Assembly: GCA_026396065.1 (NCBI GenBank)
Contig: JAPLXO010000004.1
Location: forward strand, 18,387-82,386
DNA length: 64,000 nucleotides
Reading direction: 5' to 3'
DNA from: Candidatus Nomurabacteria bacterium
GTDB lineage: Bacteria > Patescibacteriota > Minisyncoccia > Phycocordibacterales > UBA9973
This document shows positions 3,725 to 57,997 of the stretch, one piece after another (the first letter of the stretch is position 1; each line of letters starts with the position of its first letter). Below the pieces are notes generated by a model. The model was not told the origin of the DNA. It ran no database searches and worked only from the letters and a program-made list of their open reading frames with translations. The position numbers were made by a program, and so were the translations under genes.

Positions 3725-3743
3725 GCGGAGGGTTCCCCTCCGC
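3725..3743. repeat. REP palindrome (gcggaggg-ttc-ccctccgc), left flank of RAYT.
   Basis: 8-bp perfect GC stem 27 bp upstream of the RAYT start. It is the reverse complement of the hairpin at 4409-4431. Confidence 0.7.
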
Positions 3744-4396: not shown

Positions 4397-4408
4397 AAAT
4401 AACAACGA

Positions 4409-4431
4409 GGGCGGAGGGGAACCCTCCGCCC
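4409..4431. repeat. REP palindrome (gggcggaggg-gaa-ccctccgccc), right flank of RAYT, inverted relative to the left copy.
   Basis: 10-bp perfect GC stem 13 bp downstream of the RAYT stop. Confidence 0.7.
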
Positions 4432-4468
4432 TAGCTCGATTATAATTTTAGGCATATAATTAAAATCT

Positions 4469-6879: not shown

Positions 6880-7935
6880 ATGAAAATAAATATAAAAAAA
6901 TTACCACAAAGCATGGTTGAAATAGAGGGCGAATTGGAAGCTGAAATTTTTGAGAGCTATTATACTAAGGCTTTAAAAAAAATTGGTGAAAATTTAGAAA
7001 TAGATGGTTTCCGTAAAGGTAAAGTACCTGAAAATATCTTAGTATCAAAAGTTCCAGAAATAAAAATTCTAGAAGAAATGGCAGAAATGGCTCTTGGTGA
7101 GAATTATGGAAAAATTTTAGATGAGAATAAAATTGACGCTATTTCACGACCAGAAATAATGATTACTAAATTAGCTAGAAATAATCCTCTCGGATTTAAT
7201 ATAAAAACTGCTATTTTACCAGAAGTTAAAATGGCTGATTATAAGGAAATTGCTAAAAAGGTTTTAAAGGAAATTCCAGAAGAGGATAAAAATATTGTTG
7301 TATCAGGTGATGAAGTAGAAAAAGTAATTTTAGATATTAGAAAATCTAGAGCACCAAGAGTAGAAGTAGCAGAAGGTGCTGAAGCAAAAGAAGGAGAAAA
7401 GGAATTAGAACCAGTACTTCCAGAACTAAATGATGAATTTGTAAAAGGTATGGGACCTTTTGAAAATGTTGATGATTTCAAGAAAAAACTCAAAGAAAAT
7501 TTGATACTAGAAAAAACAAATCAATCAAAAGAAAAAACAAGAATAAAAATGATTGAGGCAATCATTGAAAAATCAGAAATGGAATTACCAGAAATTTTAG
7601 TGAAATCAGAAACTGACAAAATCATTCACAGAATGCAGGGTGACATAGCACAGATGGGTTTGAAATTTGAAGATTATTTAGTTCACCTAAAAAAGACAAT
7701 TGATGAAATTCGTGCAGATTTCAGAAAAGATGCAGAGCAAAGATCCAGACTTTCTTTAGTTCTAGCTAATATTGCTAAATTGGAAAATATAAAACCAGCA
7801 GAAGAAGACATCGAGCACGAAGTTTCTCATATTTTAGAGACATACAAAGATGCGGATCCGGAAAGTGCTAGAATGCATACAGAAAACGTATTAACAAATG
7901 AAAAAGTTTTCCAATTCTTAGAAATACAACAATAG
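6880..7935 (+). CDS. tig: Trigger factor (short form).
   Basis: The hallmark GFRKGKVP motif lies ~45 aa from the ATG at 6880 (MKINIKK...). The track ORF begins at a TTG at 6844, so the start is uncertain. Classic tig-clpP neighbourhood. Confidence 0.75.
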   Translation: MKINIKKLPQSMVEIEGELEAEIFESYYTKALKKIGENLEIDGFRKGKVPENILVSKVPEIKILEEMAEMALGENYGKILDENKIDAISRPEIMITKLARNNPLGFNIKTAILPEVKMADYKEIAKKVLKEIPEEDKNIVVSGDEVEKVILDIRKSRAPRVEVAEGAEAKEGEKELEPVLPELNDEFVKGMGPFENVDDFKKKLKENLILEKTNQSKEKTRIKMIEAIIEKSEMELPEILVKSETDKIIHRMQGDIAQMGLKFEDYLVHLKKTIDEIRADFRKDAEQRSRLSLVLANIAKLENIKPAEEDIEHEVSHILETYKDADPESARMHTENVLTNEKVFQFLEIQQ

Positions 7936-9137: not shown

Positions 9138-9223
9138 CCAACGCAATCCTTTTACCAAAAACGGGTTGCGTTTTTGGTTTTAAGGAGGTTGATTTGAAAT
9201 AAAATTAAGTATATTATTGAGTT

Positions 9224-9817
9224 ATGTTAATACCAACCGTTATAGAAAAAAGCCAATTTGGTGAGCGAGCGTATGATATTTACTCTCGTTTACTTCGTGA
9301 TCGTATTATTTTCCTTTCAGGACAAATAGACGACCACACAGCCAATATTATTATTGCTCAATTATTATTTTTAGAAAGTGAAGATCCTAAAAAAGATGTT
9401 TTCCTTTATGTGAACTCCCCTGGTGGCTCTGTCACTTCTACTATGGCCATCGTTGATACTATGAATCACATTCGCCCAGACATCGCGACATTTTGCGTAG
9501 GTATGGCAGCATCAGGTGCAGCTATTGTCCTCTCTGCTGGAAAGAAAGGCAAGAGATATATTTTGCCAAATGCTGAAGTCATGATTCACCAACCTTTAGG
9601 TGGCGTAGAAGGACAAGCCACAGATATCGCCATCTCTGCAAAACACATTTTGAAAACTCGTGATAATTTAAACAAACTCCTTGCGAAAAATACTGGCAAG
9701 ACCCTCGCTCAAATAGAAAAAGATGTCGAACGCGACTTCTACATGGATTCCGACGAAGCCAAAAAATACGGCATCATCGATGAAATAGTAACAAAGTCAA
9801 AAGCGACTCCTAAATAA
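9224..9817 (+). CDS. clpP: ATP-dependent Clp protease proteolytic subunit.
   Basis: 197 aa. Motifs [21 protein letters not shown] and the catalytic-Ser context [14 protein letters not shown], plus His in MIHQPLGG. Confidence 0.9.
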
Positions 9818-21752: not shown

Positions 21753-21876
21753 TGCACTTGATGGGACTCGAACCCATACACCATGAATCTACACTACTTG
21801 TTTGGACCAAATAGAATAAACCAGGACTTACCCAGATCCTAATTCTGGAGCTCTACCAATTGTTAGCTACAAATGC
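21753..21876 (-). tRNA. Atypical tRNA-Leu(TAG)-like gene, 124 nt, with a ~54-nt insertion between the anticodon stem and the T-arm.
   Basis: By hand: acceptor GCATTTG/CAAGTGC (one G·U pair), D-arm, perfect anticodon stem CCAGA/TCTGG with loop ATTAGGA, canonical T-arm ATGGG-TTCGAGT-CCCAT. The 54 nt between them is far longer than a class II variable arm. Confidence 0.5.
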
Positions 21877-28813: not shown

Positions 28814-29257
28814 ATATAGCTATAATAGCATAACCCCACCCCAATGCTAAAGCATTTTCCCCTCCCCATTTTTTGCAGAAAATGGGGAGGGGGCAGGGAG
28901 AGGGGTGAGTTATGCACTTTTGCTCTTGCCTAGTGTAAAAAATAGGAGCACAATTAATGTGTAATCTTTTTCATGCCCAAAGGCTTCCTGCATGTTCCGC
29001 GAAGATATGCGGGGAGCTAATGGCTTAAAAGATTTGTTCTTTTGAACCAATTTTCTTACGAAAGTGAGAAATAAAAATATAAGGGTTAGTAGTTGATTGA
29101 TTGTGATTGTTGGGTCAAAGGCTTGCACAGTTCTCGTGCTGTGCAAGCTAATGATTCTTTTAATCATTACAAATGTTTTAGAGAAATCTAACAACTATCC
29201 GCCCAAACATAAAAATCAGCCCTACTCTTTTGTATGGCTGTTTTTTTGTCTACTTAA

Positions 29258-31992: not shown

Positions 31993-32113
31993 ATACAACC
32001 CCCTAGCCCCCTTATCAGGGGGAACAAAATACAGAATACAATTTTTTAATACAACCCTAAATCCCTTATCAGGGACTTTAATACAAATACAACCCCAACC
32101 CCTTGTCAGGGGC
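31993..32113. repeat. Three tandem copies of a G/C palindromic mini-repeat (atacaacccc...cccYttRtcaRggg), immediately upstream of the DUF559 gene.
   Basis: Units at 31993-32025, 32049-32076 and 32087-32113. Each begins atacaaccc and carries a hairpin (cccccttatcaggggg, cccttatcaggg, ccccttgtcagggg). Confidence 0.7.
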
Positions 32114-32124
32114 TAAACTCAAAA

Positions 32125-32496
32125 ATGCAAAAGTATAAATTTCTTCCGTATAACAAGGAATTAATATTGAGAGCAAAAGAACTTCGTAAAAAACAAACAG
32201 AAGCTGAAATAAAATTCTGGAATAAAATTTTAAAAAGTGAAAAATTAAAGAATTTTAAATTTACAACACAGAAACCAATTGATAACTTTATTGTAGATTT
32301 TTATTGTTCAAGTCTAAAACTCATTATAGAAATAGATGGAGATATTCATAAGTTTCAAAAAGCTCGAGACAAGGAACGCGATAATATTTTAAAACAAAAA
32401 TTTGGATTGAAAATTTTAAGATATACGAATGATGAGATTTTGAATAATTCTGAATTTGTTTTGGAAGATTTGGTGAAGAGGATAAATACAAATTAA
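32125..32496 (+). CDS. DUF559 (PF04480, Vsr/restriction-endonuclease-like fold) protein.
   Basis: 123 aa. LRKKQTEAEIKFWNKIL...FKFTTQKPIDNFIVDFYCSSLKLIIEIDGDIH...RDKERDNILKQKFGLKILRYTNDEI matches the DUF559 signature. Confidence 0.75.
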   Translation: MQKYKFLPYNKELILRAKELRKKQTEAEIKFWNKILKSEKLKNFKFTTQKPIDNFIVDFYCSSLKLIIEIDGDIHKFQKARDKERDNILKQKFGLKILRYTNDEILNNSEFVLEDLVKRINTN

Positions 32497-32497
32497 G

Positions 32498-32628
32498 ATA
32501 CAACCCATCCCTAACCCTTCCCTTATCAAGGAAGGGAAACCTTCGTTCAATTAAGTAAATAAATTACTAAACTTTATTAGCAAGAAAAGTCCCCTGATAA
32601 GGGGATTTAGGGGTTGTGTTTTGTATTC
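32498..32628. repeat. Two more copies of the same palindromic mini-repeat family, mutually inverted, immediately downstream of DUF559.
   Basis: 32498-32542 (atacaacccatccctaacccttcccttatcaaggaagggaaacc) and 32589-32628 (the reverse complement of acaacccctaaatccccttatcagggg). Confidence 0.65.
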
Positions 32629-33348: not shown

Positions 33349-33612
33349 ATGCTATTTTATTTTAAAAACCTCGCTTCATTTATAATGAGACGAGGTTTTT
33401 ACTTTTTAACCCCAAAATGCTAGTATAATCAATATATTTAACAGTTAATCAGTTTGTCTTCAAACACACAGTAATGTTCACCAAAAGTCGATTAACGCCA
33501 TTCGACTACACTCATGGTAAAGAACAATACTTTAGTTTGGAGATAAACTAAACTTTTTCTTTCCCTCTCTAAATCTTTGATTTGGGGAGGGTCAGGGAGG
33601 GGTAAATAAAAT

Positions 33613-46807: not shown

Positions 46808-46826
46808 ATATGTTATAGTGTTTGTC

Positions 46827-48863
46827 ATGGACGAACATCTAGCAGGTCTAAATAGTTCACAAAAAGAAGCGGCTCTTCACACTGATGGGCCGCTTCTTAT
46901 TGTCGCGGGAGCAGGTGCTGGGAAAACTAAAACCATTACACATAGAATAGTAAATTTAATAAAGACTGGTATAGAGCCAAATAAAATTCTGGCTGTAACT
47001 TTTACAAATAAATCTGCAAAAGAAATGCGTGAAAGAATTTTGAATGAAATTGAGAAAAATGCCAAAGGAAATATTGAGCAAAATACTATACCTTTTGTAT
47101 CTACTTTTCACTCACTCGGTGTATATATAATCAAAGAAAATTCACGACTTTTAGGTGTCACTAGACATTTTACAATATTAGATGAAGGAGATTCACTTTC
47201 TATAATAAAAGAAGCTTTGAAAGAAAATGACTTAGACCCAAAGCAATATGAGCCAAAAAGAATGAAAGGCATTATTAGCCGTGAAAAAGGAAAGTTTACA
47301 AAAATGGAAGAGTATTTTGAAAATGCTACAGATTATCTGCCTAGAATTGTCGCACGTATTTGGAAAAGTTATGAAGCAAAAAAACTAAAAGAAAATGCAT
47401 TAGATTTTGATGATTTACTTTTAAAAGCTACGACATTATTAAAAGAAAATTTAGAAGTTCGTAAAATGTATCAAGACCGATGGAGCCATATACATATAGA
47501 TGAGTATCAGGATACAAATGAAGCTCAATATATAATGAGTAAATTACTTTCTGAAAAACACAAAAATATTTGTGTAGTGGGAGATGCTGATCAAAACATT
47601 TATTCTTGGCGTGGAGCAAATTTAAAAAATATTTTATCTTTTGAAAAAGATTATCCAAATGCAAAAATAGTATTACTGGAAGAAAATTATCGTTCCACAA
47701 AAAATATTTTAGAAGCAGCAAATACAATAATAAAGAAAAATAAATATCGTCCTGATAAAAATTTATTTACTTCAAATCCTGTCGGTGAAAAAATTTCATT
47801 ACATGAGGCTCTCGAGGAAACAGAAGAGGCGGACTTTATTGCATGTAAAATTTTAGAAATAGCAGACAGGCAAAATGTTCTTGAGAAAAGCATTGCGCAG
47901 ACTGACGAGCCGAGCACAGCAATTTCCCAGCAGGGAAATATGCGCGCTTTTCGAGAAAATATTTTGCCTGTCTGGTCAGATATTGCAATTTTGTATCGAG
48001 CAAACTTTCAATCTCGTGTACTAGAAGAAGCGATGCTACGTTACAATATTCCATATCAAGTTCTAGGCGTAAAATTTTTTGAAAGAAAAGAAATAAAAGA
48101 CACATTAGCATATTTGCGTGCAGCAATGAATCCAGAAAGCTTATCTGATATAAAAAGAATTATAAATTTCCCTGCACGTGGAATAGGCAAGACGACTTTA
48201 GCAAAACTTTTTGCTGGAGAGAAAGAAAATCTACCAATAAAAATGCAAATTAAAATTCGCGATTTTTATGAATTGTTAGAAGATACAAAAGAACAAATAC
48301 AAACTAGGACTGCATCAGAAGTAATAAAATATATAATCAAAAAATCGTGTATAGAAGATGAATTAAAAAACGGAGATGAAGAAGAATTGGAACGTCTAGA
48401 AAACATAAAAGAGCTTGCTACGCTTGCATTAAAATACGACAATTTGGAAAATGGACTCGGTGTAGAAAAGCTTATTGAGGATGCATCACTAGCCTCCGAT
48501 CAAGATTCTATAATGATTACCAATGAAAAACCAGAAAAGATTAATGCTGTTAAATTAATGACTGTTCACGCTTCAAAAGGACTGGAATTTAAATATGTTT
48601 TTGTCACAGGACTCGAAGAAGGACTTTTCCCAAATCAGCGTGATACTGAAAATAAATCAGCAGAAGATAGCGAAGAAGAGCGTAGACTTTTTTACGTAGC
48701 TATCACTCGTGCACGTGAAAAACTATTTTTATCATATGCAAACTTTAGAACTATTTTTGGTGAAAGAAGAATAAACACACCATCACAATTCATAGGAGAT
48801 ATACCAGCTGATATAATAGAAAAGGGGGATGAAGATCCAAATGTAAAAACTATTTATATATAA
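46827..48863 (+). CDS. pcrA: ATP-dependent DNA helicase, UvrD/PcrA family.
   Basis: Motif I GPLLIVAGAGAGKTKTITHRI, motif II HIHIDEYQDTN, and VHASKGLEF / YVAITRAR motifs. The ATG at 46827 is preferred over the GTG at 46818. Confidence 0.85.
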   Translation: MDEHLAGLNSSQKEAALHTDGPLLIVAGAGAGKTKTITHRIVNLIKTGIEPNKILAVTFTNKSAKEMRERILNEIEKNAKGNIEQNTIPFVSTFHSLGVYIIKENSRLLGVTRHFTILDEGDSLSIIKEALKENDLDPKQYEPKRMKGIISREKGKFTKMEEYFENATDYLPRIVARIWKSYEAKKLKENALDFDDLLLKATTLLKENLEVRKMYQDRWSHIHIDEYQDTNEAQYIMSKLLSEKHKNICVVGDADQNIYSWRGANLKNILSFEKDYPNAKIVLLEENYRSTKNILEAANTIIKKNKYRPDKNLFTSNPVGEKISLHEALEETEEADFIACKILEIADRQNVLEKSIAQTDEPSTAISQQGNMRAFRENILPVWSDIAILYRANFQSRVLEEAMLRYNIPYQVLGVKFFERKEIKDTLAYLRAAMNPESLSDIKRIINFPARGIGKTTLAKLFAGEKENLPIKMQIKIRDFYELLEDTKEQIQTRTASEVIKYIIKKSCIEDELKNGDEEELERLENIKELATLALKYDNLENGLGVEKLIEDASLASDQDSIMITNEKPEKINAVKLMTVHASKGLEFKYVFVTGLEEGLFPNQRDTENKSAEDSEEERRLFYVAITRAREKLFLSYANFRTIFGERRINTPSQFIGDIPADIIEKGDEDPNVKTIYI

Positions 48864-48864
48864 A

Positions 48865-49692
48865 ATGGAAAATAAAACAAAAATACACAAAGCAAAAAAA
48901 TCATTAGGGCAAAACTTTTTAAAATCAGTTCCTGCACTCACAGCAATAGTGAAATCTGGTGAGATTAATAATGCTGATACTATTTTAGAAATTGGTCCGG
49001 GTAAAGGAGCATTGACTGAAAAACTTTTGGAAGTTGCAGGAAAAGTTATTGCTGTAGAAAAAGATCGTGACCTTTTAGAATTTTTACAAACAAAATTTTC
49101 AGAAGAAATAAAAAATAAAAAACTGATTTTAATTAATGAAGATATTTTAGAATATAATTTAAAAATAAAAAATTACAAAATTATCGCAAATATTCCATAC
49201 AACATTACCGGAGCAATTTTGAAAAAGTTTTTAACAGATGAAAATCAACCAGAGAGAATGGTATTAATGGTGCAAAATGAAGTGGCAAAAAGAATTGTAG
49301 CCCGTGATGGAAGTGAAAGTATTTTATCAATTTCCGTAAAAGCATATGGAAACCCAAAAATTATTATGAAGGTGCCTGCACGATATTTTTCACCAGCACC
49401 AAAAGTAGACTCTGCAATTATTGCTATCACAAATATAAATAGAAATAATTTTCACCCCATCCCAACCTCCCCCTTAGCAAAGGGGGAGGGGAATTCTTTG
49501 GAAGAAAAATTCTGGAAAATAGTAAAAGCTGGCTTTGCTCATAAAAGAAAAATGTTAATGGGAAATTTAAAAGAATTTGATAAAAAAATAGATTGGCTCA
49601 GTATATTAACTAAGTTAAACATATCAATAAAATCTCGTGCAGAAGAATTGACACTAAACAATTGGCTTGAAATTACAAAAATGGTACAATAA
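48865..49692 (+). CDS. rsmA: 16S rRNA (adenine1518/1519-N6)-dimethyltransferase RsmA/KsgA, carrying an in-frame palindromic-repeat insertion.
   Basis: SLGQNFLKS, SAM-binding ILEIGPGKGALT and NIPYNIT motifs. An extra segment NFHPIPTSPLAKGEGN is encoded by a G/C hairpin repeat at 49453-49493. Confidence 0.85.
   Translation: MENKTKIHKAKKSLGQNFLKSVPALTAIVKSGEINNADTILEIGPGKGALTEKLLEVAGKVIAVEKDRDLLEFLQTKFSEEIKNKKLILINEDILEYNLKIKNYKIIANIPYNITGAILKKFLTDENQPERMVLMVQNEVAKRIVARDGSESILSISVKAYGNPKIIMKVPARYFSPAPKVDSAIIAITNINRNNFHPIPTSPLAKGEGNSLEEKFWKIVKAGFAHKRKMLMGNLKEFDKKIDWLSILTKLNISIKSRAEELTLNNWLEITKMVQ
49453..49493. repeat. Copy of the DUF559-associated palindromic mini-repeat family (caccccatcccaacctcccccttagcaaagggggaggggaa), inside the rsmA coding sequence.
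   Basis: 9-bp perfect stem ctccccctt/aagggggag at 49467-49488. The prefix cccatccc.a.c matches the unit at 32498-32542. Confidence 0.65.
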
Positions 49693-54145: not shown

Positions 54146-57100
54146 ATGAAAAATATATATAAAAAAATAATATTAGCACTGATTGTAATAATAGTTGTAA
54201 CTCTAAGTATAAATAAAATTGCAAATGCTACTGGTGAACCATTAGTCGTTACTGATCCCGCGACTGAACAAACACCAACCACAATGAAAGTTCATGGCTC
54301 GGTAATAAATACAAATTTAGAACATCCATATCTTTGGTTTGAAGTTAGTCAAAGCCAGACAGACCTACTTAGTGGTTTAAATCCGCAGGCAGTCTATGTA
54401 AATGTTGTTGGTTTACCATCATACTCTATGATAGCACCACCAGTATACTCGATTACTCTTGGAAATATTTTTTTTAATTTAACACCTAACACAATATACT
54501 ATTTTAGATTTTGCGCATCAAATCAATACGGTACATATTGTGCAAGTCCTTTAAGTACAGCAACTCTTGTGGGTAATAGTGGTGGTGGTTCTGGTGGTTC
54601 TGGTGGTGGCAATCAAAACAATGCACCTGTAAATATTTCAAATGTAACCACATACGCACCAGCACAAAGTGTCACTGATACTTCTGCAATACTTCACGGC
54701 TCAGCAACAGTTACTGGGGGAGGTAATTCTTCTGGATATTTTCGTTATTCTAAAGTTACAATTCCTCCAATTTCATGTAATGATATTTTCGGTTCAGAAA
54801 TGGTAGCCACAAGGGAAGTGTCTCTTGCTGATTGGGTAAATGGTTCAGATTTTTATAAAAGTATACCAGACACTTCTTTCTCATCTAACAGTACTGCAAA
54901 TAATTTAGAACCAAATACAAAATATGCATATTGTGCAATAGTTTCAAATGATGCCCCAAACAACACTGGTAGACCACCTCAAATAAGGTATGGAGGAGTC
55001 CAAACATTTACTACACTTCCTTGTCCGCTAAACAATCCTACATGTCAATCAATAATTATAAATACAGATGATCCTTTTGTGGTAAATTCTTCTTCTGTAA
55101 ATCTAAACGGAAGTTATAATTCAAACAAAGCTATTAAAACTTGGTTTGAATATAAAAAAGACACAGATTCGAGCTGGATATCAACACCAAAAAATCTTAA
55201 TCAGGCTCAAAGTGCTGGTGAATATAATGCAAATTTATCTAGCTTGACAGCAAGCACACTATACAATGTTCGTGCTGCAGCAGAAGAATACACAAATGGA
55301 GTACTCGTCCCACCTATTTATTATGGTGATGTTGTAAATTTTCAAACCGCTGAACCAGATGGACCAGGAGTAATTGTCGGTGGACCAGAAGATGGTGCTA
55401 CTTATATCCCAGTTTATAATAATGATGATGGTTTGGTAAATGATATTGGTTTAGATAATGGTTCTGGATTAGACAATAATAATGGCAATGGTAACGATAA
55501 TGGTAATGGTTTAGGATCTGATAATGGTAATGGTAATGCTGGAGGTGAAAGCTCACAATGCCCTACACTTACATTGGCAAATGTTCCAAATCAAACAGTT
55601 CAAACCGGGTCAATACTTTCTTTTTCAAACTATGCTTGTGGATCAAATGGACAAGCTGTGACATATACAGCTACAGGATTACCAGCAGGCGCTACACTTA
55701 GCTCATCTGGAATATTTTCTTGGAATACAGGAGCTCTACCAATACCAGCAATAAATACTTATACATTTACAATTAATGCTAGTGCTCATGCAGTAAGTAG
55801 CACAGGTGCTACCACTACTACAATTGTTTATGCAGCACCTATTACTGTGACTGTAGATGTTGTACCAGTTCCACCAGATTGCTCTACTCTTAGAATAAAC
55901 TCAATAGAAAGCCAAACTATTTTCCTAGGTCAAACCGGTATTTTTAATATGAGTTCTTGTGGAGCAAACGGACAAACAGTAACTTATTTACCTACTAATG
56001 GTTTACCGAGTGGAGCAGTATTGACTCCAGCAGGAGCATTTTCATGGACACCATTAGCAAGTCAGATCAATGTTTACAATGTTACTATCAGTGCAAGTAC
56101 ACCTACCCAAGATCCAGTATCGATAACTGTACATATTAATGTTTCTCAATTTAATAGTTCTGGTGGAGGGGGTGGTGGAGGTCAATGTACAAGATTAGCA
56201 TTATCAGCTATAGGTATTCAGACCGTGCAAGCTGGATCTAGTTTAGCTTTCTCTGCTTATGCTTGTGGATCAAACGGAGAAACTGTCACATATCGTGCTA
56301 CAAATTTACCGAGTGGAGCCACATTCACACCAGATGGAATATTTTCTTGGAATACAGATGAAGATCAAGTAGATAGTTATGCAATTGTTATTAGCGCTGA
56401 CACTCCTTCTCAATATGCAGCACCTGTAACAGTACAAATAATAGTGACAGAAATACCTTTAGATTGTCCTGTCTTAAAAATTAATCCAATACAAACTCAA
56501 AATGTTACTGCTGGTCAAAACGTAGCTTTTTACGCAACTGTATGTGGAGATAATGGAGAAGTGGTTACTTATACTATGACTGATTTACCAGACGGAGCAG
56601 GATATAGTCAGCAAGCTGGATTATTTTTATGGACACCTACAACAAATCAAGCAAACAGTACTGGCTATAATGTAAAAGTAAATGCAAATACAAACACACA
56701 AGATGCAACAGAAAAAATAGTGCATATAAATGTTGCTCCAGCTATGAATGGTCTTGGAAATAATAATGGTAGCACAGGGGGTGACAATAGTTCACAATGC
56801 ACAACACTTACATTGGCTAATATTCCAAATCAAACTGTCCAAGCAGGATCAGGTCTATCATTTTCAGCTTATGCATGTGGATCAAATGGACAAGCTGTGA
56901 CATATACAGCTACAGGATTACCAGCAGGCGCTACACTTAGCTCATCTGGAATATTTTCTTGGAATACTACAACACAACAAGTAGGTACTTACACATTTAC
57001 AATTGGTGCCAGTGCTCATGCTGTAAATAGTATGGGAGCTAGTACCTCTACAATTATTTATGCTACACCAATCACTGTTACCATAGATGTAACACCAATC

Positions 57101-57997
57101 CCACTCGACTGCCCAATATTAAGAATTAATCCAATACAAAATCAATCTGTTGTAGTGGGTCAAACAGATGTTTTCAATGTCACTTCTTGTGGATCAAACG
57201 GAGAAACAGTCACATATTCTGCTACAGGATTACCGACAAATGCTACACTCACTCCAGCTGGATATTTTTCTTGGACACCAGTTGCAAGTCAAATTAATAT
57301 TTACAATATTACAATTAATGCAAGGACACCAAACCAAGATACAGTAACAACAAGAGTGCACATCAGTGTCACATTGCCAAGTGTGGGAATCGCTGACAAT
57401 GGAACAATAAGTGGATGTGTAGACACAAATGGAATACTTACTGATTGTATTATTACTGGAGGAGTAAATATTGATGGTACACTTACTGTGACTGTAAATG
57501 GAATAACTTATGTAAATACTGGTGGATCAAATACAAACGGAGTTACTACAGGGGGGACTACAGTAATAATATCTGTAAATGGAAATAGAACTGGAATGCT
57601 AGGAACACCGGGAACAATAGTACCAGCTATTGGTGCAGTAGCTATTCCACCTATAGATGATGTGGTGGGATATCAAGAAGGAATCGAAAATGTTTTCTAT
57701 AGACAAATAGTAGGTAATATTCCTTTTGCAAAACTGTACGGATATAGAGATGGAAATGATTTAAACGTCTTTGCTGGAATTCTTTCTCACACATTCGCAC
57801 AAATGTTTGGTTATGTGAATGGAGGCGGAAGAGAAATTCGAGTTAGTATTGCAAACATTGCTGCATACAGATTAGGATTCAAAAATGGTAGTCTAGCTGT
57901 TTATGAATATTATGACAACCATTTAACAGGTATATCTACACTTACAAGAAACTTCAAGAGTGCTTTTGACTACGAGTACTATTTCAAAAAGAAATAA
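54146..57997 (+). CDS. Giant surface protein (1283 aa) with an N-terminal TM/signal, a Gly/Ser linker and at least six repeated putative-Ig-like domains.
   Basis: Repeats of the form CGSNGQAVTYTATGLPAGATLSSSGIFSWNT, resembling He_PIG putative Ig domains. A 92-nt exact DNA repeat occurs at 55637-55728 and 56876-56967. Confidence 0.65.
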   Translation: MKNIYKKIILALIVIIVVTLSINKIANATGEPLVVTDPATEQTPTTMKVHGSVINTNLEHPYLWFEVSQSQTDLLSGLNPQAVYVNVVGLPSYSMIAPPVYSITLGNIFFNLTPNTIYYFRFCASNQYGTYCASPLSTATLVGNSGGGSGGSGGGNQNNAPVNISNVTTYAPAQSVTDTSAILHGSATVTGGGNSSGYFRYSKVTIPPISCNDIFGSEMVATREVSLADWVNGSDFYKSIPDTSFSSNSTANNLEPNTKYAYCAIVSNDAPNNTGRPPQIRYGGVQTFTTLPCPLNNPTCQSIIINTDDPFVVNSSSVNLNGSYNSNKAIKTWFEYKKDTDSSWISTPKNLNQAQSAGEYNANLSSLTASTLYNVRAAAEEYTNGVLVPPIYYGDVVNFQTAEPDGPGVIVGGPEDGATYIPVYNNDDGLVNDIGLDNGSGLDNNNGNGNDNGNGLGSDNGNGNAGGESSQCPTLTLANVPNQTVQTGSILSFSNYACGSNGQAVTYTATGLPAGATLSSSGIFSWNTGALPIPAINTYTFTINASAHAVSSTGATTTTIVYAAPITVTVDVVPVPPDCSTLRINSIESQTIFLGQTGIFNMSSCGANGQTVTYLPTNGLPSGAVLTPAGAFSWTPLASQINVYNVTISASTPTQDPVSITVHINVSQFNSSGGGGGGGQCTRLALSAIGIQTVQAGSSLAFSAYACGSNGETVTYRATNLPSGATFTPDGIFSWNTDEDQVDSYAIVISADTPSQYAAPVTVQIIVTEIPLDCPVLKINPIQTQNVTAGQNVAFYATVCGDNGEVVTYTMTDLPDGAGYSQQAGLFLWTPTTNQANSTGYNVKVNANTNTQDATEKIVHINVAPAMNGLGNNNGSTGGDNSSQCTTLTLANIPNQTVQAGSGLSFSAYACGSNGQAVTYTATGLPAGATLSSSGIFSWNTTTQQVGTYTFTIGASAHAVNSMGASTSTIIYATPITVTIDVTPIPLDCPILRINPIQNQSVVVGQTDVFNVTSCGSNGETVTYSATGLPTNATLTPAGYFSWTPVASQINIYNITINARTPNQDTVTTRVHISVTLPSVGIADNGTISGCVDTNGILTDCIITGGVNIDGTLTVTVNGITYVNTGGSNTNGVTTGGTTVIISVNGNRTGMLGTPGTIVPAIGAVAIPPIDDVVGYQEGIENVFYRQIVGNIPFAKLYGYRDGNDLNVFAGILSHTFAQMFGYVNGGGREIRVSIANIAAYRLGFKNGSLAVYEYYDNHLTGISTLTRNFKSAFDYEYYFKKK

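Follow-up and report, generated by a model that had tools for sequence, protein, structure and literature searches.

A small GC-rich palindromic repeat lying in frame in rsmA of a Candidatus Nomurabacteria genome, and its relatives beside DUF559 genes

The window analysed here is a whole stretch of 64,000 nucleotides of AT-rich DNA (GC ~30-39%) from contig JAPLXO010000004.1 of a Candidatus Nomurabacteria bacterium, in which the rsmA gene (also known as ksgA) carries a 39-nt palindromic insert that keeps its reading frame open. We regard this insert, with a probability of about 0.8, as a copy of a family of small GC-rich palindromic repeats resembling the repetitive extragenic palindromic (REP) sequences and the MITEs (miniature transposable elements with inverted repeats), which is tolerated by its host gene and whose spread is linked to DUF559 genes. 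Family copies are about 35-40 nt long and consist of a C-rich leader followed by a hairpin made of a C-run and a G-run. In the mechanism that we propose, the insert would be read through as a Pro/Gly-rich extension of 13 residues in a protein loop and tolerated as a near-neutral passenger, with selection sparing only those insertions that preserve the frame and fall in loops. The family, in turn, would have been spread by, or together with, a DUF559 nuclease gene bracketed by hairpins, much as the genes of REP-associated tyrosine transposases (RAYTs) are bracketed by REPs; the hairpin might be the substrate of the nuclease, working in the manner of a transposase or of a homing enzyme, or else copies may spread through repair templated from existing copies.

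The insert in rsmA and its family

The host gene and the parts of the element are the following:

48865-49692, + strand: rsmA/ksgA, host of the insert, an open reading frame (ORF) of 275 aa
49453-49491, + strand: inserted element, 13 codons (H197-G209), peptide HPIPTSPLAKGEG, absent from the closest orthologues and top match of the family profile
49453-49465, + strand: C-rich leader of the rsmA element, CACCCCATCCCAA, kept in family members elsewhere
49466-49489, + strand: hairpin arms CCTCCCCCTT and AAGGGGGAGG with loop AGCA, perfect over 10 bp

By its sequence, the host gene is an RsmA/KsgA 16S rRNA dimethyltransferase with intact motifs. Residues 8-274, nearly the full length, match Pfam RrnaAD (PF00398, E = 1.1e-53), KsgA structures in the Protein Data Bank (PDB) are matched with E = 4e-31, and an identical database protein from a Ca. 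Nomurabacteria metagenome-assembled genome (MAG) is named RsmA. Moreover, the S-adenosylmethionine-binding motif LEIGPGKGALT and the NxPY-type motif NIPYNI are invariant in the RsmA alignment. A preliminary description of this DNA had reported within the gene a 41-nt repeat, CACCCCATCCCAACCTCCCCCTTAGCAAAGGGGGAGGGGAA, which does lie at 49453-49493 of the + strand, and its 9-bp stem (CTCCCCCTT at 49467-49475 with AAGGGGGAG at 49480-49488) extends to a perfect 10 bp, where 49466-49475 pairs with 49480-49489. The peptide given there, NFHPIPTSPLAKGEGN, sits as described between VDSAIIAI and FWKIVKAGFAHKRK without breaking the frame, and the protein segment spanning the insert reads NNFHPIPTSPLAK. 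The inserted unit itself is best delimited as 39 nt (49453-49491) and not as 41 nt. Its GC content is about 0.6 against 0.30 in the rsmA gene, none of 100 dinucleotide-preserving shuffles gave a match to the element, and the local DNA fold has a z-score of -3.5 (0/200 shuffles equally stable; z = -2.25 for the RNA fold). A design keeping every frame free of stop codons was rejected, as 4 of the 6 frames of the element are open, compared with a mean of 3.2 in 39-mers drawn at random from the window.

Comparison with orthologues indicates that the segment is an addition. With respect to solved KsgA structures, the RsmA of the window is 9-12 residues longer at the linker between the methyltransferase and the C-terminal helical domains, and the nearest orthologues in a database of 5.8 billion proteins (~75% identical, 261-262 aa) have a loop about 11 aa shorter, reading NISRENF-N-KNN-IKEEKFW where the window has NINRNNF-HPIPTSPLAKGEG-NSLEEKFW. 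A loop of the same length made of unrelated DNA in relatives would have spoken against an insertion; when these were aligned the opposite was found, and the insertion proposed in the preliminary description holds. The closest empty site, in the DNA of locus L004, consists of AATAATTTT, AAAAATAAAAAC and TTAGAG, or in a wider reading of AATAGAAATAATTTT, AAAAATAAAAAC and TTAGAGGAAAAATTCTGG, while the window has at this place AATAGAAATAATTTT, the 39 nt, AATTCT and TTGGAAGAAAAATTCTGG; about two ancestral loop codons thus appear to have been lost on insertion. In the AlphaFold model of the protein, which has a mean predicted local distance difference test (pLDDT) score of 84, the insert forms the coil between the strand at 183-189 and the helix at 209-223, and residues 200-207 fall below a pLDDT of 50, the lowest-confidence internal residues of the model. 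The surface loop anticipated for the insert is therefore seen as a low-confidence coil in an otherwise confident model, which places it in a predicted flexible loop between the two domains.

A second rsmA gene carries nearly the same element at another place. In locus L002, another Nomurabacteria genome, rsmA holds CACCCCCTCCCAACCTCCCCCTTGGCGAAGGGGGAGGGGAA, identical to the window element at 38/41 nt, which translates in the frame used in the window as HPLPTSPLAKGEG and lies in a different loop of the protein, after INEDILE. The empty sites are reciprocal, since L002 lacks the element in the linker and the window lacks it at the INEDILE site. Taken together with the orthologue alignment, this shows that a 39-nt copy was inserted into the linker-coding part of rsmA in this Nomurabacteria lineage.

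Membership of the family was assessed with a profile made from 30 copies, all from genomes other than that of the window, anchored at the loop, oriented by the C-rich leader and searched with nhmmer. A MAFFT alignment of the copies for a covariance model gave way to the loop-anchored one, as copies have loops of unequal length and their right arms were misaligned. The profile ranks the rsmA copy (49449-49492) first in the window with 23.3 bits (E = 2.8e-6), where the best score in 30 block-shuffled windows was 11.1 bits. Only one other match in the window, at 32503-32537 (15.3 bits), reaches 12 bits, and this and the weaker ones that come next (at 32007, 32099 and 32591) all flank the DUF559 gene. 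Exact and 3-mismatch searches of the window for the 41-mer and its stem found only the rsmA copy, and the prefix motif CCCATCCCNANC alone is not significant (2 matches for 0.85 expected), so that family membership rests on the profile search. Simple pattern matching does not recognise the family. The rsmA copy has the features by which we define the family, that is, a leader of the form (A)CAACCCC.TCCC.AACC, a C-run/G-run hairpin and a score above shuffles, and we assign it to the family on these sequence features. The leader form AACCCC.TCCCAACC is conserved across members in other genomes and in metagenomes. Two further places in the window deserve mention: an intergenic C-rich leader with a hairpin (CACCCCTCTCCCTGCCCCCTCCCCATTTTCTGCAAAAAATGGGGAGGGG; 28860-28918, minus strand) beside an exonuclease III-like gene, missed by the profile, looks like a degenerate relative of the family, and a weak leader-only profile match in a minus-strand ORF of 98 aa (TTTACCCCTCCCTGACCCTCCCC; 33584-33606) may be the remnant of another copy.

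These data bear on whether the segment could simply be a native low-complexity loop that resembles the repeat by chance or convergence. KsgA linkers do vary in length between phyla, and the weakness of the prefix motif on its own would fit such a view. The 38/41 identity at a different loop in L002 and the reciprocal empty sites contradict chance, convergence and a native loop alike, and so do the profile score far above shuffles, the shorter loop of the closest orthologues and the GC content of the segment within an AT-rich gene, all of which makes this explanation extremely improbable.

Recurrent inserts across rsmA orthologues

Inserts of this kind turned out to be frequent in rsmA. We retrieved 80 orthologous rsmA loci from species-representative genomes and aligned 74 proteins (the window and 73 loci), counting an insert when it was lineage-specific and at least 6 aa long. 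In this way 63 inserts of at least 6 aa were found in 41 of the 74 genes, with hot spots near window residues ~57, ~100, ~147 and ~197-209; on the window RsmA model all recurrent positions map to predicted loops. Most inserts have a GC content of 0.45-0.83 and fold strongly in host genes with a GC content of 0.27-0.44, and an AT-rich minority (GC down to 0.19) at sites 99, 101, 202 and 234 may not be palindromic elements. The domain linker has been struck repeatedly in many genomes, and unrelated sequences fill the same rsmA loop in different genomes. The preliminary description had considered it unusual that an essential, conserved rRNA methyltransferase should tolerate a mobile hairpin in frame. 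This stands as a general statement, and fails for this clade given how many of its rsmA genes carry such inserts. KsgA/RsmA is indeed universally conserved, but it is dispensable in Escherichia coli, so that the word essential goes too far.

All 80 rsmA orthologues are read as one uninterrupted frame, which means that every surviving insert is a stop-free multiple of three. From the sequences, this pattern is what read-through would give under purifying selection, and it speaks against translational bypass. The insert could, in principle, be an artefact of assembly or binning, as the genome is metagenome-assembled, or be skipped by the ribosome, and elements thought to derive from GC clusters are mentioned in this connection in yeast mitochondria (PMC4464245). 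An independent Logan assembly of run SRR20698644 is, however, identical over 3,455 nt with 0 mismatches, insert included, which makes an assembler artefact unlikely, and inserts of a similar kind are present in dozens of MAGs that unrelated studies produced. As for bypass, a skipped insert would not need to be a stop-free multiple of three, as all of these are. Both possibilities seem to us highly improbable.

DUF559 genes and the spread of the hairpins

The closest relatives of the rsmA copy within the window surround a small gene some distance upstream:

32125-32496, + strand: DUF559 gene (Vsr-like PD-(D/E)xK), candidate partner protein, Pfam DUF559 8.6e-32
31993-32025, + strand: forward hairpin copy 1 upstream of DUF559, ATACAACCCCCTAGCCCCCTTATCAGGGGGAAC, borderline profile match (11.1 bits)
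32050-32076, + strand: forward hairpin copy 2 upstream of DUF559, TACAACCCTAAATCCCTTATCAGGGAC, read in the sequence and below the profile threshold
32087-32113, + strand: forward hairpin copy 3 upstream of DUF559, ATACAACCCCAACCCCTTGTCAGGGGC, weak profile match (5.3 bits)
32498-32541, + strand: forward hairpin just past the stop codon of DUF559, ATACAACCCATCCCTAACCCTTCCCTTATCAAGGAAGGGAAACC, profile match (15.3 bits, E = 0.0011) that exceeds each of the 30 shuffles
32589-32619, - strand: reverse hairpin downstream of DUF559, ACACAACCCCTAAATCCCCTTATCAGGGGAC on the minus strand, weak profile match (7.6 bits)

The DUF559 protein of the window matches PDB entry 3hrl, an 'endonuclease-like protein', at 1e-15 and has many homologues in the Candidate Phyla Radiation (CPR). 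In a survey covering PD-(D/E)XK proteins, DUF559 falls into one group together with Vsr and the homing endonuclease of a group I intron (PMC3424549). Eight DUF559 loci were compared, namely those of the window and of L105, L111, L113, L119, L121, L122 and L124. The DNA no more than 200 nt from these genes totals 3.5 kb and holds 20 family matches, against 5 in the remaining 118 kb, an enrichment of ~134-fold (binomial p = 8e-27, which is optimistic because several of the loci share synteny; at least four distinct genomic sites are represented). The hairpin proximal to the DUF559 gene of the window reads ACAACCCATCCCTAACCCTTCCCTTATCAAGGAAGGG. Copies are arranged around DUF559 genes in a set pattern: one forward copy precedes the start codon by 5-60 nt, a second forward copy overlaps the 3' end of the gene or comes just past it (a position also filled in L111, L113, L119, L121 and L122), and a reverse copy lies about 40-70 nt downstream, recurring at 40-73 nt in other DUF559 loci. 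The neighbourhoods of the gene, in turn, differ between genomes. A DUF559 gene of Geomobilimonas (61% GC) and one of Gracilibacteria are bracketed in this way as well, by a nearly identical hairpin (TAACCCCTCCCGACCTCCCCTTGTCAGGGGAGG); the layout is kept in genomes from 33% to 61% GC, including Desulfuromonadota and Gracilibacteria.

Some details of these loci are worth recording. In Geomobilimonas luticola (L125:3001-3510) the DUF559 cassette lies inside a cobalamin biosynthesis operon, and these hairpins likewise surround the gene of a Gracilibacteria locus (L126:2940-3410), both genomes being outside the Paceibacteria. In the gene calls the hairpins of these loci have become N- or C-terminal parts of the DUF559 proteins (APSPDKGREGEG, KAPLPDKGGAGGG), extensions that are probably an annotation artefact. 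In L105, a forward hairpin of 21.7 bits and a reverse one of 10.8 bits (9153-9233) lie between NYN-domain and S15 genes, near the position that the DUF559 cassette has in the window and in L111, the DUF559 gene of L105 being elsewhere.

Away from DUF559, the family was followed in the rsmA neighbourhoods and in metagenomes. The window and the 80 loci (706 kb) contain 37 matches of at least 12 bits, of which 22 lie in sense and 7 in antisense within ORFs of at least 150 aa, using all three reading frames, and 8 are intergenic. The bias towards sense, with copies oriented by their leader, has p = 0.008 for copies that are not independent of one another. A supposed rule placing the C-rich arm ahead of the G-rich one on the sense strand in every copy was dropped, as it is trivially true of any palindrome. 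A scan of public metagenomes for CCCAACCTCCCCCTTNNNNAAGGGGGAGG returned 24 contigs of 35-63% GC with the exact leader and stem, where the leader is strongly conserved as AACCCC(C/T)(T/A)CCCAACC and most copies lie a few nt after a stop codon in short intergenic gaps, often beside other hairpins. Some copies fall within genes. One of these contigs (L097, Ga0209542_10032857) has, at ~6990-7050, a topoisomerase-like Toprim region with an in-frame element, NPHPTSPLRKGEAKKGV, followed by a second hairpin. A copy from L122, TACAACCCCTCCCGACCTCCCCTTATCAGGGGAGGAA, compared with the window copy shows that leader and stem are common to DUF559-proximal and dispersed copies.

The preliminary description had called the rsmA repeat DUF559-associated. 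At the level of the family this is borne out by the top rank of the rsmA copy in the profile search together with the enrichment beside DUF559, but not as regards a fresh copy of the local DUF559-flanking repeats. The loop T[AG]TCA is present in 20/20 DUF559-proximal copies and in 5/27 in-ORF copies (Fisher p = 9e-9), and the rsmA copy has the loop AGCA, which makes it a related subtype.

Several observations weigh against the reading that we favour. The rsmA copy has another loop than the DUF559-proximal ones, and 17 kb separate it from the DUF559 gene of the window. No convincing DUF559 gene was found at the 24 metagenome loci with the rsmA-type stem, where the single match is a short ORF of L095 with a marginal score (E = 0.0016), some 700 nt away from the element, and none was found in the 80 rsmA neighbourhoods. 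A target-site duplication was sought at the rsmA junctions and none is evident, the nearest genomes with an empty site being about 25-30% diverged, so that neither a duplication nor a clean junction can be defined. Family copies in the window are few, with no sign of a recent burst, and the translation of the insert is deduced from the intact frame. Finally, inserts that diverged genomes have in common at one site have changed far less than the genes holding them, which a purely neutral passenger does not predict. The nucleotide identity of insert and host gene is 92% and 69% for L027/L051 (76% and 51% at third positions), 99% and 87% for L010/L014, and 82% and 64% for L041/L069, in short comparisons of 33-87 nt. 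This excess suggests hairpin constraint, gene conversion or repeated site-specific insertion.

One way to account for such conservation is that the insert has been exapted, its mRNA stem acting in cis in translation pausing or transcript protection, or the added loop altering RsmA on the small subunit, and is now retained by selection. The slow change of same-site inserts even at third codon positions, the perfect pairing of the stem over 10 bp and the repeated strikes on the domain linker would all agree with a function. The presence of the insert is nonetheless patchy, with the closest relatives lacking it at this site; the same loop holds unrelated sequences elsewhere, the same element sits in another loop in L002, and most copies elsewhere are intergenic. 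Moreover, conservation over stretches this short could equally come from gene conversion or from recent independent insertion. On the whole we find exaptation quite unlikely.

A serious alternative to mobilisation by DUF559, even if on balance an unlikely one, is that the copies spread by ectopic gene conversion, that is, by break repair or replication slippage templated by another hairpin, and that DUF559 is not involved, the hairpins next to it being, for example, its own regulatory, terminator or homing-site sequences. The lack of a target-site duplication and the loss of about two loop codons at the junction are what such repair would leave, rsmA-type copies do occur away from DUF559 in the 24 metagenome and 80 rsmA loci, the loop signature separates DUF559-proximal from in-gene copies, and the conservation of same-site inserts fits concerted evolution; the GC clusters of yeast mitochondria offer a precedent of palindromes that are mobile and associated with recombination (PMC4464245). 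What this explanation leaves aside is the leader and stem common to copies near and far from DUF559, and a bracketing layout kept from 33% to 61% GC, as in REP/RAYT systems. Because the loops do not match, no convincing DUF559 gene accompanies rsmA-type copies and no target-site duplication is seen, the mobilisation of hairpins by DUF559 is something that we infer from the layout of its loci.

A stronger form of the DUF559-linked reading, which we put forward tentatively and hold to be possible though somewhat doubtful, is that DUF559 is the dedicated enzyme of a hairpin system present in several phyla and remodelling loops of CPR proteins such as RsmA, PcrA and the topoisomerase-like protein. 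Recognition would then take place through the leader and the T(A/G)TCA loop, and gene conversion or constraint on structure would keep the inserts conserved.

A second element family and likeness to known systems

The gene next to rsmA also carries an insert, of a different kind:

47866-47971, + strand: palindromic element of a second family unrelated to the first, ~106 nt long, lying in frame within pcrA/uvrD (46818-48863)

When PcrA is compared with the Geobacillus stearothermophilus structure 1pjr, the alignment breaks at query residues 348-383, where the element adds about 31-35 residues (...LEKSIAQTDEPSTAISQQGNMRAFRENIL...). It forms a long outer stem with inner hairpins (DNA fold -42.7 kcal/mol), and its family is found in frame in rsmA of L010, L014, L030 and L066, with a related family in rsmA of L004, L024, L037, L058 and L076. 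The inner hairpin shows compensatory changes within the pcrA family (ATTTCCC/GGGAAAT, AATTTTC/GAAAATT, ATTCGCC/GGCGAAT). In related genomes, loops of rsmA and of further housekeeping genes hold copies of the rsmA-type family and of at least one more. Neither element corresponds to an Rfam family; a sub-threshold match to RF03531 at 48645-48742 was set aside, as it falls in a normal coding part of pcrA, ~700 nt past the insert on its downstream side.

The window shows some other features. At 21753-21876 (minus strand) Rfam finds a tRNA of 124 nt (41.8 bits) that resembles tRNA-Leu(UAG) and whose variable region contains ~51 nt of AT-rich sequence; ARAGORN does not report it. Strong GC hairpins of a different kind, GCGGAGGGTTCCCCTCCGC and AGGGCGGAGGGGAACCCTCCGCCCT, inverted with respect to each other at 3725-3743 and 4408-4432, bracket about 660 nt, with no long ORF over them. 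Diverged direct repeats of 150-256 nt (60-89% identical) at 55550-57369 lie within a very long ORF that looks like a repeat-domain protein.

Among known systems, the Rickettsia palindromic elements (RPEs; Ogata et al. 2000, summarised in PMC10969869) are inserted in frame in numerous unrelated genes, at sites that the fold of the protein accommodates. RPEs and the rsmA element alike are palindromes dispersed over a small, AT-rich genome, where they lie in frame in housekeeping genes unrelated to one another and contribute a peptide at fold-compatible positions, and both also occur in non-coding DNA. RPEs are, however, about 100-150 bp long, confined to Rickettsia and have no known partner enzyme, whereas the rsmA element is a simple hairpin with a leader in 39 nt, of a family that extends to CPR and other phyla and is linked to DUF559. 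The distinction from RPEs is drawn on size and host, together with the lack of an Rfam match, and the ~106-nt pcrA element is closer to RPEs in size.

The layout recalls instead REP/RAYT systems, in which a gene is bracketed by direct and inverted copies of a dispersed short palindrome (PMC3337134, PMC3733652). Like REPs and REPINs, the hairpins are imperfect palindromes of 20-40 nt, in metagenomes mostly located in short intergenic gaps just past genes and often clustered, with copies in both orientations enclosing a small gene. The bracketed gene is here a DUF559 PD-(D/E)xK gene, whereas RAYTs are tyrosine (HUH) transposases of the IS200/IS605 type. The GTAG/CGTC head of REPs (PMC3733652) is absent, the element starting with (A)CA(A/C)CCCC and ending with GGAGG(GG). 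Classical REPs are extragenic, whereas 29 of the 37 copies near rsmA lie in ORFs, although metagenome copies are mostly intergenic. With regard to MITEs, the hairpin arms are the sole inverted repeat of the rsmA element, with no target-site duplication visible at its junctions, and the DUF559 cassette has inverted outer copies and no recognised transposase family.

Yeast mitochondrial GC clusters are GC-rich palindromes of 30-80 bp in AT-rich DNA, also found within rps3/VAR1 (PMC4464245). Like the hairpin family, they are mostly non-coding yet also occur within a translation-related gene, changing the size of its product, and both form tandem arrays. They differ by belonging to a eukaryotic organelle and by having other sequences and no dedicated flanking nuclease gene described (PMC4464245). 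With Vsr and the EDxHD homing endonucleases (PMC3424549) DUF559 shares the fold family and, like selfish genes, a presence at varied sites, but it has no intron or intein context, and conserved flanking hairpins are not a known feature of those proteins. The rsmA element thus belongs to none of the RPE, REP/RAYT and yeast GC-cluster groups, the closest being RPEs by behaviour, with the GC clusters also near, and REP/RAYT by layout. We found in the literature no account of in-gene palindromic elements of CPR bacteria or of DUF559-linked hairpins, in a coverage that is incomplete and no proof of absence, and the pattern is apparently undescribed.

Selfish palindromes lying in frame in conserved genes have been a textbook curiosity of Rickettsia and yeast mitochondria, and are apparently common in this uncultured radiation, where two unrelated families are found in adjacent genes (pcrA and rsmA) of a single window. 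This bears on how CPR proteins gain their many lineage-specific insertions, and on annotation, as hairpins are translated into spurious terminal extensions of DUF559. Inserts that at the same site outlast the divergence of their host genes pose a puzzle for population genetics, with constraint, gene conversion and site-specific reinsertion as the candidate answers. For DUF559, a widespread domain of unknown function, the layout provides a testable hypothesis, the binding or cutting of a specific hairpin. If DUF559 is indeed a hairpin enzyme, the system would parallel REP/RAYT, with a Vsr-like PD-(D/E)xK nuclease in the place of the tyrosine transposase, and these hairpins, together with at least one more palindromic family, would be a major source of loop insertions in the housekeeping proteins of gene-dense, AT-rich CPR genomes.

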